Shown piece by piece: positions 5,386 to 63,954 of a stretch of DNA of 64,000 nucleotides; position 1 is the stretch's first letter; each line of letters opens with the position of its first letter. Under the pieces are notes generated by a model. That model searched no databases. It saw nothing but the letters and a program-made list of their open reading frames with translations, and was not told the DNA's origin. Origin of the DNA: Candidatus Woesearchaeota archaeon CG10_big_fil_rev_8_21_14_0_10_37_12 (lineage in GTDB: Archaea > Nanobdellota > Nanobdellia > Woesearchaeales > ARS49); NCBI GenBank assembly GCA_002762795.1, contig PCYA01000009.1, forward strand, positions 5,059-69,058. Reading direction: 5' to 3'. The position numbers and the translations under genes were made by a program.

Positions 5386-5793
5386 ATGCATGGGTATCAT
5401 ACAAATAAAATGCCACACCAATGCGTACGATGCAACAAAATGTATGAAGACGCAGCACAAGAACTTCTTTCAGGATGTGAATGCGGAGCACGACTATTCT
5501 TTTACATCAAAAAAGAAAAATTAGCAGTTGCAAAACAAGTATTGCAGCAAAATATGAACTTAGAACAAAAAAAACAAATGGAAGAAGACGTTCTTGACCT
5601 TGTAGGAAGCGACCACTCAGCACCTGTTGTTCTTGATTTTGAAAGTATACGCGTAACAAAACCAGGACAATACGAACTTGATTTAGTTAAATTATTCAAA
5701 CAAGACCCTTTAGTTTTCAAACTTGAAGAAGGAAAATACATCATTGATGTAGCACAAAGTTTTGAGAAACATAGAAAGAAACACAATCTTTAA
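5386..5793 (+). CDS. Zn-ribbon protein (DUF2072-like), third member of the archaeal GTPase triad
   Basis: CVRCN...17 aa...CECG Cys4 ribbon at the N-terminus. Confidence 0.5.
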   Translation: MHGYHTNKMPHQCVRCNKMYEDAAQELLSGCECGARLFFYIKKEKLAVAKQVLQQNMNLEQKKQMEEDVLDLVGSDHSAPVVLDFESIRVTKPGQYELDLVKLFKQDPLVFKLEEGKYIIDVAQSFEKHRKKHNL

Positions 5794-5849
5794 ATAGGAG
5801 GTTATGTTAATATCCTCTATTATATTATAAAAAATGAGGTGAAAATCAT

Positions 5850-6714: not shown

Positions 6715-7647
6715 TTACTTCTTTTCCTCAGAATTATCCATAACAAGCCTTGCAACATTATTCGTTGCAGTTATCATTGACTTAAACAACTCAGCAACAC
6801 CTGGAGAAAGCTCACTTGCAGAGGTAATCAAACCAACTCTGTCAAGAGCAACCTGCTCTGCAAGCTTTCTATCACTCACAAAATAAGCCTTCATTGCATC
6901 AAGATAACTCTTTTCAACACGCTCAAACATCTCCTTGATATTTGATTTTTTCTTTTCCTTACCAACATACTCTGCCAAATGTTTTGTATAATCAGCAAAA
7001 TTTTCCAGATTAATCGTTAAATAATAAAAATTGAGAATCTGATCATTAGACAGCTGAAATGAATCCGCAATATGCTTATTTGCCAAGGAACTTTTTAACA
7101 AACGCATAAGCAAAAAATACGCACGATTCACTTCCTCATCACGCATAATGACGCTGTCAATAAGCTTTGCATCATCCAATGCAGCAACACTATCCTGAAG
7201 CATACTACGCACAAGCATGTCCATCCTACGAACAGTTTTCTCAACATTCACATCCTTAACATTCAACAAATCCTTTGCAACAATACTCTTCGCAGACTGC
7301 TCAGCAACTTCCAGCGCAACAAAATCATGTAACATTTTCCGAATGTCTTTTGTTTTTGCAGCAATAGAAGAACCAGCAAGAACAATTGTATTGTAATTGT
7401 TAATGTACGCGCTCGTGATTTCTCTCTGTAAAGTGCTTAATTCTTTATTATCTACAGAAATTGTAATCTCTTTCTGAGGAAGAGGCTCATCGCCTTTATT
7501 TTCAGGAGTAATCAACAATTCATGATCTCCCCGCTCATGCAGATAAACCAAATCACCCTTTTTAAGACGATGTTTATCTAGCCATTCTTTTGGCAAAGAA
7601 ATGGTATGCGATGCCTGGCCAGCCTTAACTAACCGTCTAATAATCAT
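6715..7647 (-). CDS. phoU: Phosphate-uptake regulator PhoU homolog with an N-terminal SpoVT/AbrB DNA-binding domain
   Basis: The N-terminus MIIRRLVKAGQASHTISLPKEWLDKHRLKKGDLVYL is an AbrB swapped-hairpin, followed by about 230 aa of helical PhoU-like repeats. This is the typical archaeal architecture. Confidence 0.6.
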   Translation of the reverse strand: MIIRRLVKAGQASHTISLPKEWLDKHRLKKGDLVYLHERGDHELLITPENKGDEPLPQKEITISVDNKELSTLQREITSAYINNYNTIVLAGSSIAAKTKDIRKMLHDFVALEVAEQSAKSIVAKDLLNVKDVNVEKTVRRMDMLVRSMLQDSVAALDDAKLIDSVIMRDEEVNRAYFLLMRLLKSSLANKHIADSFQLSNDQILNFYYLTINLENFADYTKHLAEYVGKEKKKSNIKEMFERVEKSYLDAMKAYFVSDRKLAEQVALDRVGLITSASELSPGVAELFKSMITATNNVARLVMDNSEEKK

Positions 7648-7895
7648 TCATAACACCTCTTTAATACGTATAACCGTACAATCAGTACCATAAGTATATA
7701 TAAATTTTTTGTAACTCTAGAATTGGCGCAACAAAGTACCGCAGCCCAGCTGCAAAGTATCAATATTAGGTTTAGCCTGCCTTTATAATCAATCATTAAA
7801 TAAGGACAATATCCAAACAACCCCAAAAACAGAAAAACAAAGCTGACGCATGTTTTTCTGAGTATTAAAAAGCTCAGCTTTTTAACACAACCCAA

Positions 7896-52633: not shown

Positions 52634-52707
52634 GGGGACATAGTATAACCTGGCTAGAATAGGCGGCTCCAACCCGCCGGATTTGGGTTCGAATCCCAAT
52701 GTCCCCA
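52634..52707 (+). tRNA. trnW: tRNA-Trp (anticodon CCA). The 3' CCA is not encoded
   Basis: 7-bp acceptor GGGGACA/TGTCCCC. Anticodon arm GGCGG-CTCCAAC-CCGCC. Canonical T-arm TTGGG-TTCGAAT-CCCAA. The D-arm is non-canonical as read. Confidence 0.75.
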
Positions 52708-52723
52708 CTTATTACTTTAAAAA

Positions 52724-53284
52724 ATGAAATCAATATTCATAATACACGGAACAGAAGGGTATCCAGAAGAGAACTGGTTTCCTTGGCTGAAAAAGAAATT
52801 AGAAGAATTAGGTTGCAATATTTTTGTTCCTCAGTTTCCTTCACCACCAATTGTTCCCGCAAAGATATCTGAATGGTTTGAAGTATTTGAGAAATACAAA
52901 CAGCACATTAATGAGGATACTATAATTATTGGTCACAGTTTAGGTGGAGTTTTTACCCTTAATCTGCTTGAAACATTAAAACAACCAATTAAAGCAGCTA
53001 TTTTTGTAGGCACTCCGATAGGCGTTCGTCCAATATTAAATTATGACAGAGACAGCAGTTTTAGTGGCTTTTCTTTTGATTGGCAGAAGATAAAAACTAA
53101 AGCACAGAATTTTATCGTTTTTCAATCAGATAATGATCCTTACGTCAGTTTGGGAAATGGCGAAGAATTAGCAAAAAACCTGAATGTAGAATTAAGCTTT
53201 GTACCAAACGCAGGACATTTCAATGAAAAAGCAAAGTATTTGAAATTTGAGTTGTTGCTTGAGAAGTTGAAGTTGATTTTGTGA
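52724..53284 (+). CDS. Alpha/beta serine hydrolase of the YdeN/RBBP9 family
   Basis: GHSLGG nucleophile elbow, 186 aa. Confidence 0.6.
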   Translation: MKSIFIIHGTEGYPEENWFPWLKKKLEELGCNIFVPQFPSPPIVPAKISEWFEVFEKYKQHINEDTIIIGHSLGGVFTLNLLETLKQPIKAAIFVGTPIGVRPILNYDRDSSFSGFSFDWQKIKTKAQNFIVFQSDNDPYVSLGNGEELAKNLNVELSFVPNAGHFNEKAKYLKFELLLEKLKLIL

Positions 53285-53351: not shown

Positions 53352-53501
53352 ATGGAAGAAAGCAAAAACATCACATTGAAAGTCAATACAAAATTGTATG
53401 ACAAATATAGAGAACTCTGTAAACATGAAGGCTGGATTGTATCTCGTCAATTTGAGAAATGTATGGAAGAAGAATTAAAGAAGAGGGGCGAGAATGAGTA
53501 A
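53352..53501 (+). CDS. Small ribbon-helix-helix-like protein. Possible controller or regulator of the R-M operon
   Basis: NITLKVNTKLYDKYRELCK has a beta-strand-helix pattern. It overlaps the hsdM start. Its SD/start AGAGGGGGCGAGAATG is duplicated at hsdM. Confidence 0.35.
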   Translation: MEESKNITLKVNTKLYDKYRELCKHEGWIVSRQFEKCMEEELKKRGENE

Positions 53502-55515
53502 TTTTCAAGAAAAAATAACATTTATCTGGGATTGTGCTGATTTACTAAGAGGACCATATAAGAGAAATGAATATCAGAAAGTAATTCTTCCTTTTACTGT
53601 ACTAAAAAGATTTGATTGTGTTTTATCAGATTCTAAATCAAAAGTTCTTGAAACTTATAATCAGTTCAAAGGACAATTTGAAAACACGGAGCATGTTTTA
53701 CAAGAAGCGTCCAAAGATAAAAAGGGCAATCCTTTAGGATTTTACAATTATTCAAAATATGATTTTAAAACATTGCTTGAAGATCCTGAGCATATAGAAC
53801 AGAACTTAATTCATTATATTGATAGTTTTAGCAAAAATGTCCAAGATATTTTTGAGAAATTTAAACTTAAAGCACAAATAGAAAAACTTTCTAAAACAGA
53901 TAGACTGTTTAGGCTTGTAAAGAAATTTTCTGAATCAAAAGTTGATTTACATCCAGACGTTGTATCAAATCATGAGATGGGAACAATTTTCGAAGAATTA
54001 ACTCGTAAGTTTGCAGAACAGTCAAATGAAGAAGCAGGAGACCACTTCACCCCTAAGGATGTAGTTGAATTGATGACAAAATTGATGTTTATTGAGAATG
54101 GAGTTCATTTAACAAAGAAGAATTTGATTAAAACAGTTTATGATCCTGCTTGTGGAACTGGCGGAATGCTTTCTAGTTGTAAAGATTTTATAAGTAAAAT
54201 GAATGAATCGGTTGATATTGTTCTATTTGGTCAAGAAATTAATGATGAAATTTTCGCAATATGTAAATCTGATATGCTAATTAGAGGAGAAGATGCAAAT
54301 AATGTTAAAGGAGGAGATGATTTAAGCACACTTTCTAAAGATCAGTTTCCTAATGAAAAGTTTGATTATATAATCTCAAATCCACCTTATGGAACAAAGT
54401 GGGAAGCTGACCAAGACGAAGTAATAAAAGAATCTAAAAAAGGTTTTGAGGGTCGTTTTGGAGCAGGAACTCCAAGAATTAAGGATGGTCAATTATTGTT
54501 TTTGCAGCACATGATTTCTAAGATGAAATTAAAGGAGAAATCAAGAATTGCGGTTATTACAAATGGTTCTCCTTTGTTTACTGGTGATGCAGGTTCAGGA
54601 GAAAGCGATATTCGTAAATGGATTATTGAAGGAGATTTGATTGAAGCGATTATTGCCCTGCCTCATCAAATGTTTTATAAAACAGGTATAGGAACGTATA
54701 TCTGGATTTTGACTAATGAAAAGCCAATTGAAAGAGTTGGTAAAATACAGCTAATTGATGCAACTTCTAAATTTAAGAAGATGCGTAAAAGCTTAGGTAG
54801 TAAAAGGCAATATATTTCCCCTGAAGATATTAAAGAAATTCTGGAATATTATGAAAATTTCAAGCCTTCAAGAAATATTAAAATATTTGATAATGAAGAA
54901 TTTGGATATACTAAGATAACGGTTGAAAGACCATTACAATTAAACTATTGTGTTAATGAAGAAAGACTTGAAAATCTTTATTCTTATAGTGCTTTTTCAA
55001 AACTAGCTGAAAGCAAAAGCAAGAATCCTGATGAAAAGCTAAAAGAGGAAGAAGAAGGAAAAGCAGAGCAAGAGGAAATTATTAAAGCTTTGAAATCTGT
55101 CGGAGATAAAACTTATAAGAATTGGGATGAATTTGAAGAACTTGTTAAGAACGCTTTGAAAAACATTAAATTAACTCCCATATTTATCAAGAATATTATT
55201 CTTAAATTATCAGAACATGATGAAACTGCTGAATATGTTTTAGATGGAAAAGGCAAAAAACAAGCAGATTCCAATTTAAGAGATTCTGAAAAGATTCCAT
55301 TAAAAGAAGATATTCAAGAGTATTTTGACAGAGAAGTGAAACCATATTATCCTGATGGATGGATGGATAGAAGCAAGGATAAAATAGGTTATGAACTAAA
55401 CTTTACTCAATATTTCTACAAATATGTTCCTCCAAGACCTTTGGAAGAGATTGAAACAGACATCAAGAAAGTAACTGATGAGATTGCAGAACTAGTCAAG
55501 GAGGATGTCGAGTAA
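53494..55515 (+). CDS. hsdM: Type I restriction-modification N6-adenine DNA methyltransferase subunit
   Basis: IISNPPYG motif IV and DPACGTGGML motif I. Confidence 0.85.
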   Translation: MSNFQEKITFIWDCADLLRGPYKRNEYQKVILPFTVLKRFDCVLSDSKSKVLETYNQFKGQFENTEHVLQEASKDKKGNPLGFYNYSKYDFKTLLEDPEHIEQNLIHYIDSFSKNVQDIFEKFKLKAQIEKLSKTDRLFRLVKKFSESKVDLHPDVVSNHEMGTIFEELTRKFAEQSNEEAGDHFTPKDVVELMTKLMFIENGVHLTKKNLIKTVYDPACGTGGMLSSCKDFISKMNESVDIVLFGQEINDEIFAICKSDMLIRGEDANNVKGGDDLSTLSKDQFPNEKFDYIISNPPYGTKWEADQDEVIKESKKGFEGRFGAGTPRIKDGQLLFLQHMISKMKLKEKSRIAVITNGSPLFTGDAGSGESDIRKWIIEGDLIEAIIALPHQMFYKTGIGTYIWILTNEKPIERVGKIQLIDATSKFKKMRKSLGSKRQYISPEDIKEILEYYENFKPSRNIKIFDNEEFGYTKITVERPLQLNYCVNEERLENLYSYSAFSKLAESKSKNPDEKLKEEEEGKAEQEEIIKALKSVGDKTYKNWDEFEELVKNALKNIKLTPIFIKNIILKLSEHDETAEYVLDGKGKKQADSNLRDSEKIPLKEDIQEYFDREVKPYYPDGWMDRSKDKIGYELNFTQYFYKYVPPRPLEEIETDIKKVTDEIAELVKEDVE

Positions 55516-56440
55516 GATGGGGGATTTTCCAGAGAATCAAATAAAGTATATTTTAAAGGAGAAGTGGGATAATTCAAATAGAGTCGAATCTGCAATAACA
55601 GACTATTTTTACAAAGAGAAAAAAGGTTCAAAACCTACAAAAACTGATGATTTTATTCTATTATTTATACTTGGAATAAACAAAGATGGGAAGAAAGCAT
55701 TCTCTACAAAATATAGTACTTGGAAACAATCGAAAAATCAAAATTTGTCAAATGAGCTATTAAAACTCTTTTTCATTTCTTCCTTAAAAGATAAAAATGA
55801 CTTTAAGAAAAAAACAACAGAATTTCTAAAAGAAACAAAAATAAAAGATTTTGATAATAGTTTATCGCCACTCTATCTCTTTCTAGAAGAGTTATACTTG
55901 AATAAAAAAAATGAATTCGCAACAGGAATAAAAAACTCAATCTTGCCATTGATAGCTTCACTATTCGGATTTTATAGGCATAATAAAGTAAAACAATTTT
56001 ATCAGATGCAAATAGATCTTATTGATTTAGTAACCCAAAAAAGCATTAACACTTATGAAAAAATAGCCTTGTTGTTATATTCTGAGAACAAACAATTTCA
56101 AGGCATACAACTGAATAGAAAAGATTCTTTAGAATATCTTAAAAACAACAATCCTCCTGTTTTTTATGGATACATTAAGAAAAAATATCTAGACATATTA
56201 AAGGACTTCAAACTATGGGGTATTTCTGCAATTATTGGTTTATTTGCAATCTTGAGAACATTTGGGTTGCTTGACTTTACAGGTATCTACGAGGGAGAAT
56301 TTTTTAAGATAACAGGACTACCAATTATTGTTAATTGGATCTCAGAACCCATTAATCTATTAGTTCTTTTCTTGTTGTCAGTAATTGTTATTGGTGTAAT
56401 AAAGACAATGCAATTTTTTAAGGAGATGAAAAGACAATGA
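55505..56440 (+). CDS. Hypothetical protein X1. About 230 aa are soluble and the C-terminus has two TM helices. It is embedded between hsdM and hsdS
   Basis: It overlaps hsdM by 11 bp and X2 by 4 bp. No recognisable catalytic motif. Confidence 0.5.
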   Translation: MSSKMGDFPENQIKYILKEKWDNSNRVESAITDYFYKEKKGSKPTKTDDFILLFILGINKDGKKAFSTKYSTWKQSKNQNLSNELLKLFFISSLKDKNDFKKKTTEFLKETKIKDFDNSLSPLYLFLEELYLNKKNEFATGIKNSILPLIASLFGFYRHNKVKQFYQMQIDLIDLVTQKSINTYEKIALLLYSENKQFQGIQLNRKDSLEYLKNNNPPVFYGYIKKKYLDILKDFKLWGISAIIGLFAILRTFGLLDFTGIYEGEFFKITGLPIIVNWISEPINLLVLFLLSVIVIGVIKTMQFFKEMKRQ

Positions 56441-57915
56441 AGACAACAATATATTTTAGCGTCAATATTGATGTAGGGGAATATCCTTATGAAGCGTTGT
56501 ATAATGCTTTAGAGAGTCTAAAGTTAAGTATTAACAAAGAAAACAGAACCCTTTCCTTTAATGGCTTATTGATATCTTATCGCCTTAGACATAGGAAAGC
56601 AATACAACGTTATGTATTGACATTTAGTTTGGACAGACCTGCTTCTCAATTAACTGTGAGTGAAACAACACAAAGATATAATCAGATTTGTGGACTTATA
56701 GATTTCTTCCCTCCCGAGATTACAGTGGGGACACTTAAATTTACTCGTGAAGAAATAAAAGATGAAATAGATATTGGAGAATGGTCAATTACAAATCCTT
56801 ACAGTTCTCAAGAAGTAAGCATATTTGACAACTATAACCTTCAAAAACTTAAGGACGAATATGCTGGAAAAATACCCCTAAAACCCATATTTATACAACT
56901 CGATAATAGCGATAATGCTTCAGTCATAATTAATACACTGAAAACATTCTTTTCTGATAACCCTGAAGTGATAGAGGAACGAGTTAATCTTGTTAGAGAC
57001 ATAATTGATGGACGAGCAGACAAAAATAGAATATTTGTCATAATTATATACAGTGCAGATATAAATGATAGTTATATTAAACTGAAGAAATATTTCTTGC
57101 AAAATAACATTCCATCACAATTCATCAACATGGATGATAAGAAATTCTTTTTCAAAACAAAAAATCTCATACCTGAGATGCTGACTAAAGCATCTTGCTA
57201 TCCATTCAAATTTCCAGAGAACATCTCAACTGTAGACGGGTATATTTGCTTGAATGATGTTTATGATGAAAGAAACCCTCTTTTCGGAATAAACATTACC
57301 TATAACACAGAAGAAAATGTGTTTCACAATAAAATTAAAGTCTACTCAGATATAAAATATAATTCAGACTGGAAAAAAATAAACTTTGACGAGGGTAATG
57401 TTAACCTACTAGTGCAAAAAATAACATCCTTAAGTCCTGAATTAAAAGGGAAAACAATCAATGTTTATCTTACCAAATATTGGAAATATACAAACCTAAA
57501 AACACTACAAAAAAAACTTAAAGAGGCAGAAATTAAGATTAACAAAGTGTTTAACATATCATTCTTTTCAGATAAATTCGTGTTTCAAGGGATGGATTCT
57601 TTGGATAAAACAAAGATTCCATTTCTTATTAAAGACAAGTATGTTGCATACATACAACCAAACACTAGAATTGGACTATTTGGCAGTCTTTTCCCAATAA
57701 GTTTGGAGTTATCACTTAGGGATTCAGAAGAGGAAATAATAAGAGAAGATATTGAAGAATATTTGTGGCTGATTAAGAGAAGAGTTTATCGTTTACAGTA
57801 TATAGATATGTTAAGATACCCTGAGTTTTTGGCGTATTCTAAGAAAATAAAAGAACTTAAACTAAGCGAAGAAGAACTCTCTCAATTAACTTTTAGCGGG
57901 GATTTACTAATATGA
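56437..57915 (+). CDS. Hypothetical protein X2 (492 aa, soluble), embedded between hsdM and hsdS
   Basis: 4-bp ATGA overlaps on both sides. No P-loop or known nuclease motif identified by eye. Confidence 0.5.
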   Translation: MKTTIYFSVNIDVGEYPYEALYNALESLKLSINKENRTLSFNGLLISYRLRHRKAIQRYVLTFSLDRPASQLTVSETTQRYNQICGLIDFFPPEITVGTLKFTREEIKDEIDIGEWSITNPYSSQEVSIFDNYNLQKLKDEYAGKIPLKPIFIQLDNSDNASVIINTLKTFFSDNPEVIEERVNLVRDIIDGRADKNRIFVIIIYSADINDSYIKLKKYFLQNNIPSQFINMDDKKFFFKTKNLIPEMLTKASCYPFKFPENISTVDGYICLNDVYDERNPLFGINITYNTEENVFHNKIKVYSDIKYNSDWKKINFDEGNVNLLVQKITSLSPELKGKTINVYLTKYWKYTNLKTLQKKLKEAEIKINKVFNISFFSDKFVFQGMDSLDKTKIPFLIKDKYVAYIQPNTRIGLFGSLFPISLELSLRDSEEEIIREDIEEYLWLIKRRVYRLQYIDMLRYPEFLAYSKKIKELKLSEEELSQLTFSGDLLI

Positions 57916-59243
57916 AACTCAAACCATATCCAAAATACAAAGACTCTGGAGTTCAATGGATTGGAGAGATTCCTGAAGAGTGGGGAGTTAAAAAACTCAA
58001 GATAGTAGCTGATGTTAATATCAGTAATATAGATAAGAAATCATCGGATTTTGAGCCTTATGTTAAATTATGCAACTATACAGATGTTTATTATAATGAC
58101 TTCATAACTTCTGACATAATTTTTATGGTAGCAACAGCAAGTCACCAACAGATATCAAAGCTCAGACTTAAAGAAGGAGATGTACTGATTACCAAAGATT
58201 CAGAAGAAGCTGATGATATTGCCATTCCTGCATTAGTTAAGGAAACTTTCAAAGATGTTGTATGTGGATATCACTTAGCCCACATCAGACCTAATAAATT
58301 GGAATTACTAGGAAGTTACTTGTTCAGATTGTTTAAGTCAAAGAACGTTTCAGATTATTTTACCTTAAACGCTAATGGAGTTACCCGATTTGGTATTAGC
58401 ACATATCCAATAAAAAATGTCCAAATTCTCTTACCCTCCCTTCCAGAGCAGGAAAAGATGATCACTTTCCTAGATTCAAAAACATCTCAATTTGACCAAA
58501 CAATCGAAAAAGACAAACAATTAATTGAACTTCTAAAAGAAAAAAGAACTGCATTAATCAATCATGTTGTAACAAAAGGACTCGATAAAAATGCAAAGAT
58601 GAAAGATTCTGGAATTGATTGGATTGGAGAGATACCTGAAGGTTGGAGTACAAGAAGAATTGATAAGCTTTCAAAAGTAAGTAGAGGAGCATCTCCAAGA
58701 CCCATTGATGACCCAATATACTTTGATGAAAAGGGAGAATATTCTTGGGTTAGGATTGCAGATGTAAGTTCAAGCGATAGATATTTAGAGGAATCATCAG
58801 AAAAACTTTCAGTTTTAGGAAAATCGTTAAGCGTTGCTTTAGAATCCGGGAGATTATTTGTTTCAATAGCCGGAACAGTTGGAAAACCAATTATTACCAA
58901 AATAAAATGTTGTATTCATGACGGATTTGTTTATTTTAAAAATTTAAAAGTTAATAATGAGTATTTATATTATATTTTCATCGGAGAACAAGCATACCTA
59001 GGTTTAGGGAAATGGGGAACACAATTAAATCTTAATACTGAAACAATTGGATTAATTGCAATTCCTTTACCAGATGATAAAGAACAACACCAAATAGTCC
59101 AATACTTAGACAAAGAAACTTCAAAGATTGATCAAATTATTAAAAAGATTGAAGAAAAGATAAATTTAATGGAAGAATATAAAAAATCATTAATTCATCA
59201 TGTTGTAACAGGTAAAATCGATGTGCGAGGTGTTGCACTATGA
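57912..59243 (+). CDS. hsdS: Type I R-M specificity subunit with two target-recognition domains
   Basis: Duplicated DSGxxWIGEIPExW TRD starts and conserved central and C-terminal helices. Confidence 0.8.
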   Translation: MKLKPYPKYKDSGVQWIGEIPEEWGVKKLKIVADVNISNIDKKSSDFEPYVKLCNYTDVYYNDFITSDIIFMVATASHQQISKLRLKEGDVLITKDSEEADDIAIPALVKETFKDVVCGYHLAHIRPNKLELLGSYLFRLFKSKNVSDYFTLNANGVTRFGISTYPIKNVQILLPSLPEQEKMITFLDSKTSQFDQTIEKDKQLIELLKEKRTALINHVVTKGLDKNAKMKDSGIDWIGEIPEGWSTRRIDKLSKVSRGASPRPIDDPIYFDEKGEYSWVRIADVSSSDRYLEESSEKLSVLGKSLSVALESGRLFVSIAGTVGKPIITKIKCCIHDGFVYFKNLKVNNEYLYYIFIGEQAYLGLGKWGTQLNLNTETIGLIAIPLPDDKEQHQIVQYLDKETSKIDQIIKKIEEKINLMEEYKKSLIHHVVTGKIDVRGVAL

Positions 59244-60145
59244 ACAATACTTCAATCATTAGTGATGCAACAAGTACAATCGTGAATAATTCAGCACCAA
59301 TTCTGGCTTCTATTGACCCAAATTGGTTTTATAGTGCAATTGCTCAAAGTTCAGCAGCAATTGTTGGAATTATGGGCGCATTTCTAACTTCAAGAATAAT
59401 AAGTCAGAGAAGTGCAATATCCACTCTTCAAAATGAAATTCATGATAATAATAATAAAATGGAATTCTTGAAAAAAAGAATCTTTGAAAAAAAACAATGG
59501 GTTGAGCAAATAGATGAAGAAGAAAATATGACAAATGTCAAAGATTTCCTCAAAGAAATAAGAGATGATCTTGATCCAGATAATCCTCCTACCATAGATG
59601 AATTAATTGAAAAAGGTAATCAAGATGAAAATGAAGATTACCATAATCTTCCTAAAAATATACTTGAATTAAGTTTTAATGAAGAATATCTTACAGAGTT
59701 AAGAGAAAGACAAAGAAAGCGCTCATCTCCTTTTGGTATGCTTAATATGGATGGATTGATGCTTGATAGGTCAATACTTATAAATCCAAATATTACTGGT
59801 AAAAAATGGGACAGATATCGAAGATATAGTGATGAAATTTATGCAACAGAAGTTGAAATTGATTACTTATCTGATTTAAATAAAACAAAAAATGAGGAAC
59901 TCACTAAATTGATGGAAGCTAATGAAGTTAAAAAAACACTTTTGTTTCTTGGGGGATTTTCAATATTAGGAGTATTTGCTCCTCTAGGAATTATGATGAC
60001 TCAAAACAATTACACCATGAATTTATTTTTACCTTATACATTTTGGATTATTTTTGGTTCTTGGATATTAATACTATTTTATTTTACAAAAGAAATAATT
60101 CAACTAAATAATAAGATTCATAAGATGTCAAAAAATGGAAACTAA
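59240..60145 (+). CDS. Hypothetical membrane protein X3. It has an N-terminal TM, a coiled-coil or acidic middle region and two C-terminal TM helices. It lies between hsdS and hsdR, the position PrrC occupies in prr loci
   Basis: Overlaps on both sides. The E/K-rich middle is predicted coiled coil. Confidence 0.5.
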   Translation: MNNTSIISDATSTIVNNSAPILASIDPNWFYSAIAQSSAAIVGIMGAFLTSRIISQRSAISTLQNEIHDNNNKMEFLKKRIFEKKQWVEQIDEEENMTNVKDFLKEIRDDLDPDNPPTIDELIEKGNQDENEDYHNLPKNILELSFNEEYLTELRERQRKRSSPFGMLNMDGLMLDRSILINPNITGKKWDRYRRYSDEIYATEVEIDYLSDLNKTKNEELTKLMEANEVKKTLLFLGGFSILGVFAPLGIMMTQNNYTMNLFLPYTFWIIFGSWILILFYFTKEIIQLNNKIHKMSKNGN

Positions 60146-63068
60146 CACTTCAGAAAAAGCATTTCAAAATGATATTATTGCTCATTTAGTTAGTACAGGA
60201 TATAAAAGCAGAGGAACAAACTGCTTCAATAAAGCATCATGCCTTGATCCAGAATTGACTTTAAAGTTTATCATGGACACCCAAGAGAAAATTTGGAAAA
60301 AATTTCAAAAAGTTTATGGAGATGAAGCAGAAAATAAATTATTTTACAGATTAATCAATGAAATAGATAAAAAGGGAACAATCAATGTTCTAAGAAATGG
60401 CTTTAAAGATGTTGGATGTCAATTCAATATATTTTATCCTAAACCAAATAACAACAAAAATCCTGATTTATTCGAGCATTTTGAGAAAAACATATTTTCA
60501 GTTATTGATGAATTAGAATATCAAGACAGAGAAAAAGGAAATAGATTGGATTTGGTTATATTCATAAACGGACTGCCCATTTTAACAATAGAACTTAAAG
60601 ATACATTTTCTCAAGGTGTAGAGAGAGCAATAAAGCAGTATAAAGAAGATAGAGACTCTAAAGAAAAAATATTTCAAAATTGCTTTGTTCATTTTGCTAT
60701 GAGTGATGAAAAGATATTCATGGCAACAAAATTGGCTGGATGGAAAACAAGATTCTTGCCTTTCAACAAAGCATTAGATAATCCTGAAGTACAAAACGAT
60801 TACAAAACTTCATACCTATATAATGATATTTTACAAATAAACAAACTATCAAAATTAATTAATAATTTTGTTTATATTGAAAAAGAAGATACTGAGGAAT
60901 ATCCAATTTTCCCAAGATACCATCAATTAGATTGTGTTAATTTGCTTTTGGCAGATGCAAACCCTAGTAAAAATTATCTCATTGAGCATAGTGCAGGTTC
61001 TGGAAAAACCAAAACAATTGCATGGCTTTCTCATGGATTGATTAATAAATTTAACAGGTTAGATAATCGTATCTATGATATGGTTATTGTAGTTTCGGAT
61101 AGAAAGGTAATAGATAAACAATTACAAAATCAAGTTCAGGCAATTGAAAAAGTAAAAGGTATTGTTGATGTTATTGATGAAAAGAAATCTTCAAAAGATC
61201 TTAAAGAAGCAATGAAATCAGGAAGTAATATTGTTGTAACAACATTACATAAATTCCCTTATATCTTAGATGAAGTTAAGGATTTACCAAAACGAAATTA
61301 TGCAGTAATCATTGATGAAGCACATTCTTCACAATCTGGAGCAATGGCTCGAAAAATGAAACAAATTCTCTCAACAAACAGTTTAGAAGAAGCTGAAGCA
61401 CTAGAAAAAGATGTTGATGAAGAAGTTGAAGAAGAAATACTAAATGAAATTGAATCTTATAGGAATCTAAAAAATGTTAGTTTTTTTGCATTTACTGCAA
61501 CTCCTAAAAATAAAACTCTTGAAATGTTTGGGACTAAAGATGATGAAGGAGAATATCATTCATTCCATTTATATTCTATGAAACAGGCAATTGATGAAGG
61601 TTTTATTTTAGATATTCTCAAGCATTATCTTTCTTATGCAACTTATTTTAAGTTAGTCAAGAAAATAACAGATGATCCTGAATATGATGAAAAGAAAGCA
61701 AAAAAATTATTGAGAAATTTTGTTGAAAAGCATCCTCATGCAATTTCAAGAAAAACTGACATAATGCTTGAGCATTTTATGAGTTCAAGTTATAATAAAA
61801 TCAAAGGTAAAGCTAGAGCGATGGTTGTAACAAGGTCAAGACTTCATGCAGTATTATACAAAAAAGCATTTGATAAATTAATCAAAGAAAACAATTATCC
61901 AATAAAGACTTTGGTTGCATTTACTGGAATAGTAAAACATGATGAGCAGGAGTATACTGAAAGTAATATGAATGATTTACCTTCAAAAAAATCAATTGAA
62001 AATGCTTTCAAAGAAGAACCTTATAGAATTTTAATTGTTGCTAATAAATATCAAACTGGTTTTGATCAACCATTACTTCATACTATGTATGTTGATAAAA
62101 TGCTTAATGGGATTACTGCTGTTCAGACTCTTAGTAGGACAAATAGGATATATCCTCCTCACAAAAATGATACTCTGATATTGGATTTTGCAAATCAAAC
62201 AGAAGTAATTGAGAAAGCCTTTCAACCCTATTATGAAGCTACTTTCTTAAAAGAAGGAACTGATCCTCACAAATTATACGAGCTTGAAGAAAAATTAATT
62301 GATTATCAAATATTTGACCAAACAGATGTAGACGCTTTCATTAAAGCATGGAAAAAAGGAGAACCACAACCTAAACTTCACAATCTTTTGAACCCTGTTG
62401 TAAATGAGTTTAGAAAGAAGACTAAAAAAGACCAAGTCGGATTTAAGAAAACATTGAAGCGATATCAAAGTATATATTCATTTTTATCCCAATTAATGCC
62501 GTTCTCTGATGTAAATCTTGAAAAGATATTCCTATTTAATAAGTTTCTATCAAAGAAACTTCCAACAATAAATAATCCCTTACCCTTCAATGTTTTAGAA
62601 GATGTAGATATGGATTCATATAAAATCGTAAATAAAGGGGAAAAAGAGATAAAATTAAAATCGGAAGGCGAATTAAAACCTATTTCGGCAGGAGTTGGTG
62701 AATTTGCGCCAGATATAAACACTAAATTATCTAAAATTCTCCAAGCTTTAAATGATGCTTTTGGGACTGATTTTACTGAAGATGATAAAGTTTTCTTAGG
62801 AAGAGTTAAAGACCATCTTCTTGAAAATAAAGAATTATTAAACAAGATGGAACATAATTCTAAAGAAAATGTTAAAGCCGTTTTCGATAAATATTTCAAT
62901 CAAGAAATGACAGGATTATTAAATAGCAATATGAAATTCTATAAAAGATTAGTTGATAATGAAAAACTTAAATCAAAACTGAAATCTGCATTGTTTGATT
63001 TAATGTACTATGAGTTCAATAAACTTAAGAAGAATAAAGAATCAGAAAAACAAGAAAAAATAATATAA
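60135..63068 (+). CDS. hsdR: Type I restriction enzyme R subunit (SF2 helicase-nuclease)
   Basis: IIDEAHSSQ (DEAH box), FTATPKN motif, 977 aa. Confidence 0.8.
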   Translation: METNTSEKAFQNDIIAHLVSTGYKSRGTNCFNKASCLDPELTLKFIMDTQEKIWKKFQKVYGDEAENKLFYRLINEIDKKGTINVLRNGFKDVGCQFNIFYPKPNNNKNPDLFEHFEKNIFSVIDELEYQDREKGNRLDLVIFINGLPILTIELKDTFSQGVERAIKQYKEDRDSKEKIFQNCFVHFAMSDEKIFMATKLAGWKTRFLPFNKALDNPEVQNDYKTSYLYNDILQINKLSKLINNFVYIEKEDTEEYPIFPRYHQLDCVNLLLADANPSKNYLIEHSAGSGKTKTIAWLSHGLINKFNRLDNRIYDMVIVVSDRKVIDKQLQNQVQAIEKVKGIVDVIDEKKSSKDLKEAMKSGSNIVVTTLHKFPYILDEVKDLPKRNYAVIIDEAHSSQSGAMARKMKQILSTNSLEEAEALEKDVDEEVEEEILNEIESYRNLKNVSFFAFTATPKNKTLEMFGTKDDEGEYHSFHLYSMKQAIDEGFILDILKHYLSYATYFKLVKKITDDPEYDEKKAKKLLRNFVEKHPHAISRKTDIMLEHFMSSSYNKIKGKARAMVVTRSRLHAVLYKKAFDKLIKENNYPIKTLVAFTGIVKHDEQEYTESNMNDLPSKKSIENAFKEEPYRILIVANKYQTGFDQPLLHTMYVDKMLNGITAVQTLSRTNRIYPPHKNDTLILDFANQTEVIEKAFQPYYEATFLKEGTDPHKLYELEEKLIDYQIFDQTDVDAFIKAWKKGEPQPKLHNLLNPVVNEFRKKTKKDQVGFKKTLKRYQSIYSFLSQLMPFSDVNLEKIFLFNKFLSKKLPTINNPLPFNVLEDVDMDSYKIVNKGEKEIKLKSEGELKPISAGVGEFAPDINTKLSKILQALNDAFGTDFTEDDKVFLGRVKDHLLENKELLNKMEHNSKENVKAVFDKYFNQEMTGLLNSNMKFYKRLVDNEKLKSKLKSALFDLMYYEFNKLKKNKESEKQEKII

Positions 63069-63409: not shown

Positions 63410-63661
63410 ATGTCTATGCAGATTAATTTGAGGATTTCGGAAGGGTTTCTAGAGCAAGCTAAGGAGTATGCTAAGAATAATGGGTTTTTGAATGTTCAAG
63501 AATTTATTCGTGATGCTGCTAGAGAGAAGATTTTTGGTTCTATGGAAGTGAGACCAGAATATTTAGAACGGTTGAATAGTATTGAAGCAAATACTTTTTT
63601 GTCTGATGGTGAATCTGAAGAGTTTGAAAGAGAACTTAAAAAAAGAGCACAGTTGGAATGA
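63410..63661 (+). CDS. Ribbon-helix-helix (CopG/Arc-like) antitoxin
   Basis: N-terminal beta-strand INLRISEGFLEQAKEYA. It overlaps the downstream toxin by 4 bp. Confidence 0.55.
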   Translation: MSMQINLRISEGFLEQAKEYAKNNGFLNVQEFIRDAAREKIFGSMEVRPEYLERLNSIEANTFLSDGESEEFERELKKRAQLE

Positions 63662-63954
63662 GAAGGAGAAAGCACAGTCATCTTTTTAGAAAACAACTCA
63701 AAAAAATTAAAGGGCAAGAGTTACAAAACACATTAAATAAAATAGATGAAATTTTAAATTCCACTGATTTGAATCATTATAAGAACTTAACACGCGATCT
63801 TAAAAAGTATAAAAGAGTTCACGTAAATAATTCTTATGTGATATTATTTTTTGGAGATGATGACACAGTTTATTTTGTTGATTATGCTCATCATGATATC
63901 ATATACAAACATAGCAAGAGAGATCTTAAAAAGTATGATGATCTAAAATTCTGA
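63658..63954 (+). CDS. RelE/ParE-family type II toxin
   Basis: C-terminal YVILFFGDDDTVYFVDYAHHDIIYK resembles the RelE/ParE Y-R-I-x-Y...V-x-I-L-R-I-G-H-R core. Confidence 0.5.
   Translation: MRRRKHSHLFRKQLKKIKGQELQNTLNKIDEILNSTDLNHYKNLTRDLKKYKRVHVNNSYVILFFGDDDTVYFVDYAHHDIIYKHSKRDLKKYDDLKF

Follow-up and report, generated by a model that had tools for sequence, protein, structure and literature searches.

A divergent Argonaute and its membrane partner nested in a type I restriction-modification operon of a Woesearchaeota archaeon

Organization of the locus

We analyzed a stretch of 64,000 nucleotides (hereafter, the window) of Candidatus Woesearchaeota archaeon CG10_big_fil_rev_8_21_14_0_10_37_12 (assembly GCA_002762795.1, contig PCYA01000009.1, positions 5,059 to 69,058), in which a type I restriction-modification (R-M) operon carries three additional genes, named X1, X2, and X3. 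X2 encodes a very divergent Argonaute, X1 its membrane partner, and X3 a separate passenger with three transmembrane (TM) segments. HsdM, HsdS, and HsdR are all intact, full-length, and typical of type I R-M systems in Pfam, PADLOC, and NCBIfam. As proposed in a preliminary description made from the sequence alone, the coordinates of the open reading frames (ORFs) give a tightly coupled series of genes, all on the forward strand, headed by a candidate ribbon-helix-helix (RHH) regulator, in the order RHH-hsdM-X1-X2-hsdS-X3-hsdR:

53352-53501, +, small putative RHH (Arc/CopG-like) regulator, first gene of the operon; weak matches (see below)
53494-55515, +, hsdM, type I R-M methyltransferase, long form of 673 amino acids (aa); HsdM_N and N6_Mtase (Pfam, E 1e-63)
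55517-56440, +, X1, membrane partner of the Argonaute; alternative start at 55505
56437-57915, +, X2, divergent prokaryotic Argonaute of 492 aa; MID-PIWI
57912-59243, +, hsdS, specificity subunit with two target-recognition domains; two Methylase_S matches (Pfam), Specificity_I (PADLOC, E 5e-107)
59240-60145, +, X3, three-TM passenger, from family alignments and synteny
60135-63068, +, hsdR, restriction/translocase subunit of 977 aa; HSDR_N, SWI2_SNF2/ResIII, and T1R_D3-like domains (Pfam)

Along this order, the ORFs overlap by 8, 11, 4, 4, 4, and 11 bp. An overlap of 4-11 bp had been described for every junction, which is the case everywhere except, probably, between hsdM and X1. X1 probably starts at the ATG at 55517, 1 nt past the hsdM stop codon, rather than with an 11-bp overlap, because the alignments of its orthologues begin at X1 residue 5 and the GenBank product is 307 aa long, and not 311 aa as first described.

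X2 is a PAZ-less MID-PIWI Argonaute

The X2 protein is 100% identical to the NCBI entry 'hypothetical protein COV18_02220', and its family is annotated only as "hypothetical protein". X2 had no match at E<=1 in Pfam and none in NCBIfam, and PDB sequences, queried with X1, X2, and X3 as single sequences, returned nothing significant. None of the three proteins had been thought to resemble a known family; this still holds for X1 and X3, which have no Pfam or NCBIfam match, but not for X2, the only one with homology to a described family, whose MID-PIWI Argonaute nature emerged from PADLOC, from its structural model, and from Foldseek.

PADLOC models of prokaryotic Argonautes (pAgos) and PIWI proteins matched X2 in part (best E 3e-10), and the pAgo models matched 33 of the 51 X2-family members. 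The curated Pfam Piwi model (PF02171) missed X2 and touched 3 of the 51 (best E 2e-4), because the family is too divergent for it. The close family is tiny (10 proteins, 38-100% identity), and an exhaustive profile search yielded at least 72 representative clusters at 50% identity, 58 of them with E<1e-10, mostly of 510-560 aa. Seven residues are invariant and nine nearly invariant across relatives down to about 20% identity. When the X2 profile was compared with PDB sequences, the nearest solved relatives were AfAgo (E 2.6e-5) and SiAgo (E 8e-4).

An AlphaFold model built from an alignment of 51 sequences reached a predicted local distance difference test score (pLDDT) of 91.4 and a predicted template modelling score of 0.90; an earlier model from 8 close homologues had been poor (pLDDT 65). 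With this model as a Foldseek query, the top 50 PDB matches were all Argonautes (E down to 1e-16, probability 1.0). The aligned lengths were 410-431 residues for long Argonautes and 331-355 for short ones, that is, 75-90 more for the long proteins, indicating that part of the N-terminal extension of X2 superposes on the linker regions of long Argonautes. This extension covers approximately aa 1-140 (nt 56437-56856) and is followed by a Rossmann-like MID domain (~aa 145-255, nt 56869-57201) and an RNase H-like PIWI domain (~aa 265-492, nt 57229-57912). X2 is thus a very divergent MID-PIWI Argonaute that lacks PAZ and, as described earlier, is soluble according to hydropathy.

The 5'-phosphate pocket of the MID domain (Y/H-K-Q-K) is kept: Y213 occurs in 46 of the 51 sequences, and K217 (K or R), Q228, and K251 in all of them. 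The pocket motif aligns with 'YYKLK...IPSQF' of AfPiwi. In the PIWI domain, the first catalytic Asp of both AaAgo and CtAgo has its aligned counterpart in D274 (42 of 51). The position after beta4, where the second catalytic Asp would lie, is Thr or Ser in 51 of 51 sequences and is followed by Lys or Arg in 48, whereas D438 is invariant (51 of 51). Since the second catalytic position is Thr/Ser, X2 is probably an inactive, sensor-type Argonaute without nuclease activity, as judged from the sequence register and the predicted secondary structure.

No X2 homologue was found in the viral contigs searched, plasmid searches with X2, the family member P0051, and X3 returned nothing, and the literature search gave no result for 'PprPIWI'. 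In one cluster of the family (P0056/P0112/P0113), the Argonaute core of two members, 678 and 701 aa long, is preceded by about 170 additional residues that include TM helices. This may be either a true TM-Argonaute fusion or a gene-calling artefact. P0056 was down-weighted as a "Rosetta-stone" fusion, its 90% cluster also containing a 520-aa form without the extension.

X1 has the architecture of an Argonaute-associated membrane effector

In its 307-aa form, X1 consists of a soluble, apparently mainly helical N-terminal domain (~aa 1-225) followed by two TM helices (~aa 227-257 and 267-302, nt ~56195-56422). The two C-terminal helices had been noted before, and hydropathy confirmed them, as it did the absence of such segments from X2. 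X1 had no match in Pfam, PADLOC, NCBIfam, PHROGs, or PDB. In addition, searches of Pfam, PADLOC, and NCBIfam for TIR, SIR2, Mrr, HNH, and DUF4365 domains gave no match in X1, X2, X3, or their neighbours.

At each of the 10 loci or locus groups inspected, a gene of 300-400 aa, usually overlapping, adjoins the X2 homologue and encodes a soluble domain followed by two C-terminal TM helices. It lies upstream of the Argonaute gene in the window and in L001, L004, L006, L007, L014, L015, L016, and L018, and downstream in L020. A hidden Markov model of the X1 family failed to detect the distant partners, which hhalign aligned colinearly with it over 181 columns (E 2.5e-4, probability 43%). The TM partners combine a constant layout with fast sequence evolution.

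This layout, a soluble domain with two C-terminal TM helices encoded beside an Argonaute gene, is that of the Aga2-type effectors and was found in all 10 loci or locus groups. In Sulfolobus islandicus, SiAgo-Aga1 activates the two-TM effector SiAga2, and the membrane is depolarised (Zeng et al. 2022; PMC11788926; bioRxiv 10.1101/2021.12.09.471704); Af1317, a homologue of SiAga2, adjoins AfAgo (PMC10954474). X1 shares this organization with both proteins, the architecture of SiAga2 being taken from the preprint (bioRxiv 10.1101/2021.12.09.471704) and from a reconstructed sequence. A hydrophobic-periodicity test was calibrated on X2, in which alpha-periodicity won in 0.81 of helix and 0.26 of strand windows. 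On this crude score, the soluble domain of X1 reached 0.67 and SiAga2 0.65, versus 0.47 for the alpha/beta protein X2. From this measure, the soluble domain of X1 appears to be mainly helical, like SiAga2, rather than alpha/beta. By analogy with SiAga2, it is plausible that X1 is a membrane-disrupting abortive effector.

The X1-X2 cassette was captured repeatedly by type I R-M operons

A search for conserved synteny, suggested in the preliminary description, recovered X1-X2 homologues inside hsd operons at six other loci or locus groups that are independent of one another (L001-3, L004/5, L006, L007/L008, L014), as well as close X3 homologues at hsdS and hsdR, so that the proposal of defence-type passengers embedded in an hsd operon was upheld. 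The close X1-X2 pairs, which form a subclade from Woesearchaeota-like archaea, always lie within type I R-M operons. The cassette occupies the slot between hsdM and hsdS in the window, L004/5, L006, L007/8, and L014, and lies after hsdS in L001-3. A scan of genome contigs added only one further genome, L014. Distant relatives (L015, L016/17, L018/19, L020) had no hsd genes within the fetched flanks. Because these relatives lack both hsd genes and a conserved third gene, the X1-X2 module can be regarded as autonomous.

The identities between loci differed strongly from gene to gene:

Window versus L014: X2 79%, X1 71%, HsdM 30%, HsdR -
Window versus L006: X2 61%, X1 45%, HsdM 77%, HsdR 81%
L014 versus L004: X2 64%, X1 47%, HsdM 72%, HsdR -

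The history of X1-X2 is thus incongruent with that of its host hsd genes (X2 79% versus HsdM 30% between the window and L014), and the cassette has been recaptured repeatedly. At least three hsd families host X1-X2, with the hsdM/hsdS slot used in at least two of them and the position after hsdS in the third. Exchange between hsd families with retention of the slot argues for selection on the embedded arrangement.

Two loci showed further particularities. L001, the most divergent embedded locus, contains two extra small ORFs within the hsd operon, at 5400-5825 (141 aa, weak NikA-like match) and 7293-7880 (195 aa, no match), and an integrase follows the Argonaute gene. In L016 (12136-17554, reverse strand), the stand-alone pair of Argonaute and TM partner lies in surroundings resembling a defence island, with Fic, MoxR-VWA, and a PLD-family protein beside a large DEAD/ResIII helicase.

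X3 is a separate passenger

X3 had been described as a protein with an N-terminal TM segment, a coiled-coil middle, and two C-terminal TM segments, located between hsdS and hsdR, where prrC lies in prr loci. The position is as described, and the family follows this plan: an N-terminal TM segment, about 160 soluble residues, part of them in a coiled coil, and a hairpin of two TM helices at the C terminus (aa 233-287 by hydropathy, nt ~59936-60100). The N-terminal segment carries an invariant D-x-N-W..AQ..AAIVG motif (~aa 25-50, nt ~59312-59389); it is weaker in the window protein, where it falls below the hydropathy thresholds used, yet it is the most conserved part of the family. The same plan is kept in a superfamily found at about 80 metagenomic loci (L028-L100 included) and on three IMG/VR contigs classed as viral (L101-L103).

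Close homologues of X3 (E<1e-60) lie between or beside hsdS and hsdR, without X1-X2, in L010, L011, L022, L023, L024, L025/26, L027, and L034. One homologue was found in a defence island (L009), and distant members of the superfamily are not linked to hsd genes. Conversely, X3 is absent from most X1-X2 loci: the slot between hsdS and hsdR is empty in L008 and L014 and is occupied in L006 (6130-8067) by a GmrSD_N protein of 645 aa that also weakly matches an AHH nuclease. The occupant of this slot varies, and different defence genes have landed there. As each occurs without the other, X1-X2 and X3 are independent cassettes, and the view of X1, X2, and X3 as a single module had to be abandoned. 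A kinship between X1 and X3 was likewise rejected (hhalign probability 0.4%).

No significant family match was obtained for X3 in Pfam, PADLOC, NCBIfam, or the other libraries scanned, and several assignments were considered and not adopted. A PADLOC 'Effector 2TM' match, which would point to an effector of a cyclic-oligonucleotide-based antiphage signalling system (CBASS), fell outside the TM region (E 0.013) and occurred in 2 of 20 family members. A CorA-like model of PADLOC matched 2 of 20 members (E 2e-4) and the Bestrophin-like family PF14023 matched 2 of 43 superfamily members below the gathering score (best E 7e-6), neither of them touching X3 itself. An MCU-like match (E 0.3) and a single weak PHROG match to an Rz-like spanin (E 2e-4) were also set aside. 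Our working guess is that X3 is a membrane-acting defence or accessory protein.

The R-M genes and their surroundings

HsdM matched the PADLOC MTase_I model over its full length (E 4e-268) and its translation contains the NPPY-type motif 'SNPPYG'. HsdR matched TIGR00348 (NCBIfam, E 2e-67) and contains the DEAH motif 'IIDEAHSSQ'. Two pairs of direct repeats were found within hsdS (57917-57983 with 58580-58646, and 58537-58574 with 59173-59210), and they match the conserved regions behind the two target-recognition domains, which are usually present in duplicate. The RHH candidate had weak matches only (RepB-RCR_reg in Pfam, E 0.013; Arc-like repressor in PHROG, E 0.008), and its gene is kept upstream of hsdM in L014 (E 2e-11).

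The operon is preceded at a distance of about 640 bp by a tRNA-Trp(cca) gene (52634-52708, +), and a serine-hydrolase gene (52724-53284) separates the two. The GC content is 0.27-0.32 from about 53 kb to the end of the window, versus 0.33-0.42 over most of it. Integration as an island might account for this low-GC stretch beside the tRNA gene; the window showed no att-like repeat matching the 3' end of tRNA-Trp. Downstream of hsdR, two small overlapping genes (63410-63661 and 63658-63954, +) encode CopG_antitoxin-like (E 2e-3) and YafQ/RelE-like (E 4e-3) products, both below Pfam thresholds, and look like a type II toxin-antitoxin pair.

Proposed function and alternative explanations

In our reading, the operon is a mosaic in which a full type I R-M system is interspersed with two passenger cassettes independent of each other (X1-X2 and X3). 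X1-X2 would combine an Argonaute sensor with a membrane effector and provide a second, abortive-infection layer co-expressed with R-M. Taken as a whole, this reading has our moderate confidence. From the folds, motifs, architecture, and synteny, which were observed directly, we infer guide binding, activation of X1, toxicity, and a function in defence. The conserved MID pocket of X2 would accommodate a 5'-phosphorylated guide, X2 would sense complementary nucleic acid of an invader, and target-bound X2 would then activate X1. By analogy with the activation of SiAga2 by SiAgo-Aga1, X1 may depolarise or permeabilise the membrane, and the infection would be aborted. The placement between hsdM and hsdS would ensure translationally coupled co-expression with R-M, the cassette acting once restriction has been evaded. 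X1-X2 is apparently a minimal two-gene Argonaute module that needs no separate N-L1-L2/APAZ subunit. Because X2 is an Argonaute sensor, its trigger is most likely guide-directed sensing of nucleic acids and not inhibition of R-M.

Several points weigh against this reading. The conservation of D274 (42 of 51) and D438 (51 of 51) may reflect some catalytic or metal-binding role, and the DEDX tetrad of X2 was assigned from the register of the alignment combined with predicted secondary structure. The X1 family aligned with SiAga2 at E 0.28 in hhalign, the SiAga2 query having been reconstructed from a supplementary table damaged by optical character recognition; the distant partners aligned with the same reconstructed sequence at E 0.009, over only 26 columns and with a probability of 5% (4.6%). 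These alignments are too weak to establish homology. No partner of the N-L1-L2, APAZ, or Aga1 type and no conserved third gene were present in the embedded or stand-alone loci, and the N-terminal extension of X2 is an unproven stand-in for such a subunit. The fixed hsdM/hsdS slot across hsd families hints at a link to R-M tighter than co-expression alone, and all the data are metagenomic.

Such a link would be explained if X1-X2 were functionally coupled to the Hsd proteins, for example through HsdR-made fragments loaded into X2 as guides or through docking on the HsdM2S core. Although the cassette has been exchanged, two or more unrelated hsd families have it in the same slot, and a third has it after hsdS; this is consistent with the idea of coupling, as are the translational coupling of all junctions, the listing of HsdS among the orthogroups that neighbour pAgos (Ryazansky et al., PMC6299218), and the precedent of PrrC, which is physically bound to EcoprrI (PMC12707154). 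However, the distant relatives of X1-X2 have no hsd neighbour, the cassette follows hsdS instead of separating hsdM from hsdS in L001-3, neither X1 nor X2 has a domain suggesting binding to Hsd proteins, and embedded systems for which tests exist, TgvAB among them, function independently from the host R-M (PMC11411939). We thus regard this coupling as rather unlikely. A broader form of it, a composite R-M/Argonaute immunity, in which fragments of restricted DNA made by HsdR, or transcripts of that DNA, would guide X2, the resulting memory would trigger X1 upon escape, and X3 would serve as a second, PrrC-like guard, is in our opinion unlikely.

The independent distribution of X1-X2 and X3 also bears on the possibility that all three form a PrrC-like retaliation module, silenced by intact R-M and killing the cell through its membrane when an anti-restriction protein of a phage blocks R-M. 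This is the mode of action that the preliminary description had favoured, and nothing was found to support firing upon R-M inhibition. X3 does occupy the prrC slot, where its close homologues are almost solely found, and the TM hairpins of X1 and X3 are typical of abortive effectors; however, X2, with its conserved guide pocket, brings its own trigger, relatives of X1-X2 occur without R-M neighbours, and no likeness to the PrrC, SLATT, KAP, or Abi families was detected in Pfam, PADLOC, or NCBIfam. The suggested SLATT-like nature of the effectors found no match even at E<=1 in Pfam. We therefore consider a guard of this kind quite improbable, although X3 alone might still act as one. The cassettes might also be neutral or selfish mobile hitch-hikers that enter hsd operons because insertions there are tolerated and well expressed in the small genomes of DPANN archaea; the association would then bring no benefit, and X2 might be decaying. 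The varying content of the hsd slots (GmrSD-like in L006, none in L008 and L014, small ORFs in L001) and the low GC of the region beside tRNA-Trp could be explained in this way. All genes are intact, though, and X2 keeps its invariant and nearly invariant residues even in relatives of about 20% identity. In addition, the cassette was captured repeatedly at one and the same junction, with overlaps of 4 bp, which points to selection on co-expression, and no transposase or recombinase lies beside the cassette inside the operons; hitch-hiking without benefit thus seems quite improbable, to the same degree as a PrrC-like guard.

Significance

These results uncover a hidden clade of Argonautes, with at least 72 clusters at 50% identity, that was missed by the Pfam Piwi model and is paired with a two-TM partner. 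The embedded cassette offers a concrete system for studying cooperation between restriction and Argonautes, for example with regard to the origin of guides. Surveys of DPANN archaea have reported that their small genomes contain few known defence systems (PMC12988326), and divergent modules such as X1-X2 may explain part of this gap. The X3 superfamily is widespread, unannotated, and of three-TM architecture, and one of its branches is specialised to the slot between hsdS and hsdR, which makes it a clean candidate for "guilt-by-embedding". If true, the composite immunity considered above would amount to innate immunity in which restriction is linked to guide acquisition in a priming-like manner.

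Comparison with known systems

One of the nearest known parallels is the SiAgo-SiAga1-SiAga2 system, from which X1-X2 differs in having two genes instead of three, with some 140 aa of N-terminal extension on X2 itself in place of a separate Aga1 gene, and in being embedded in a type I R-M operon. AfAgo, about 13% identical to X2, needs a separate N-L1-L2 protein (AfAgo-N), has its TM protein downstream, and shows no link to R-M (PMC10954474). Long-B pAgos are usually associated with effectors described as 'alpha-helical domain + TM/TIR/HEPN/PD-(D/E)xK' (Manakova et al., PMC10954474; cited in PMC11788926). X1-X2 resembles the long-B pAgo/membrane effector (BPAM) systems in combining an Argonaute sensor, probably inactive in the case of X2, with a partner made of a helical domain followed by TM segments, X1 being compared here by architecture only; unlike long-B pAgos, X2 is devoid of the N and PAZ-remnant domains, and the genomic setting is different. 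In SPARTA, SPARSA, and SPARDA, APAZ is fused to a TIR, SIR2, or nuclease effector, whereas neither APAZ nor an enzymatic effector was found in X1-X2, and the short pAgos of these systems were not among the PDB sequence matches of the X2 profile.

PrrC and RloC combine an N-terminal ABC-type P-loop ATPase with a C-terminal anticodon nuclease domain. No such match was found in X1, X2, or X3 in Pfam, NCBIfam, or PADLOC, and X3 shares only its position with PrrC. More generally, searches of the three proteins against PADLOC v2 gave no significant match to PrrC, GmrSD, or any other model, apart from the partial pAgo matches of X2. Known defence genes nested in type I R-M operons include PrrC in EcoprrI (PMC12707154) and TgvAB of the V. 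cholerae island VPI-2 (PMC11411939), and a 'guilt-by-embedding' screen of R-M operons has been published (Payne et al. 2024, bioRxiv 10.1101/2024.01.29.577857); no Argonaute or PIWI protein embedded in R-M appears in its main text. An incomplete literature search yielded neither a description of an hsd operon with an embedded Argonaute nor one of Argonautes in DPANN R-M loci, and the Argonaute described here is the first nested in a type I R-M operon to come out of that search. With the same reservation as to the literature, the type of defence module that X1-X2 represents is known, whereas no report of its setting was found. X1-X2 and X3 resemble PrrC/EcoprrI, TgvAB, and the Payne et al. candidates in being independent, putative defence cassettes that lie among hsd genes and would be transcribed together with these; unlike in those cases, the passengers are an Argonaute with its TM partner and an unannotated three-TM protein.

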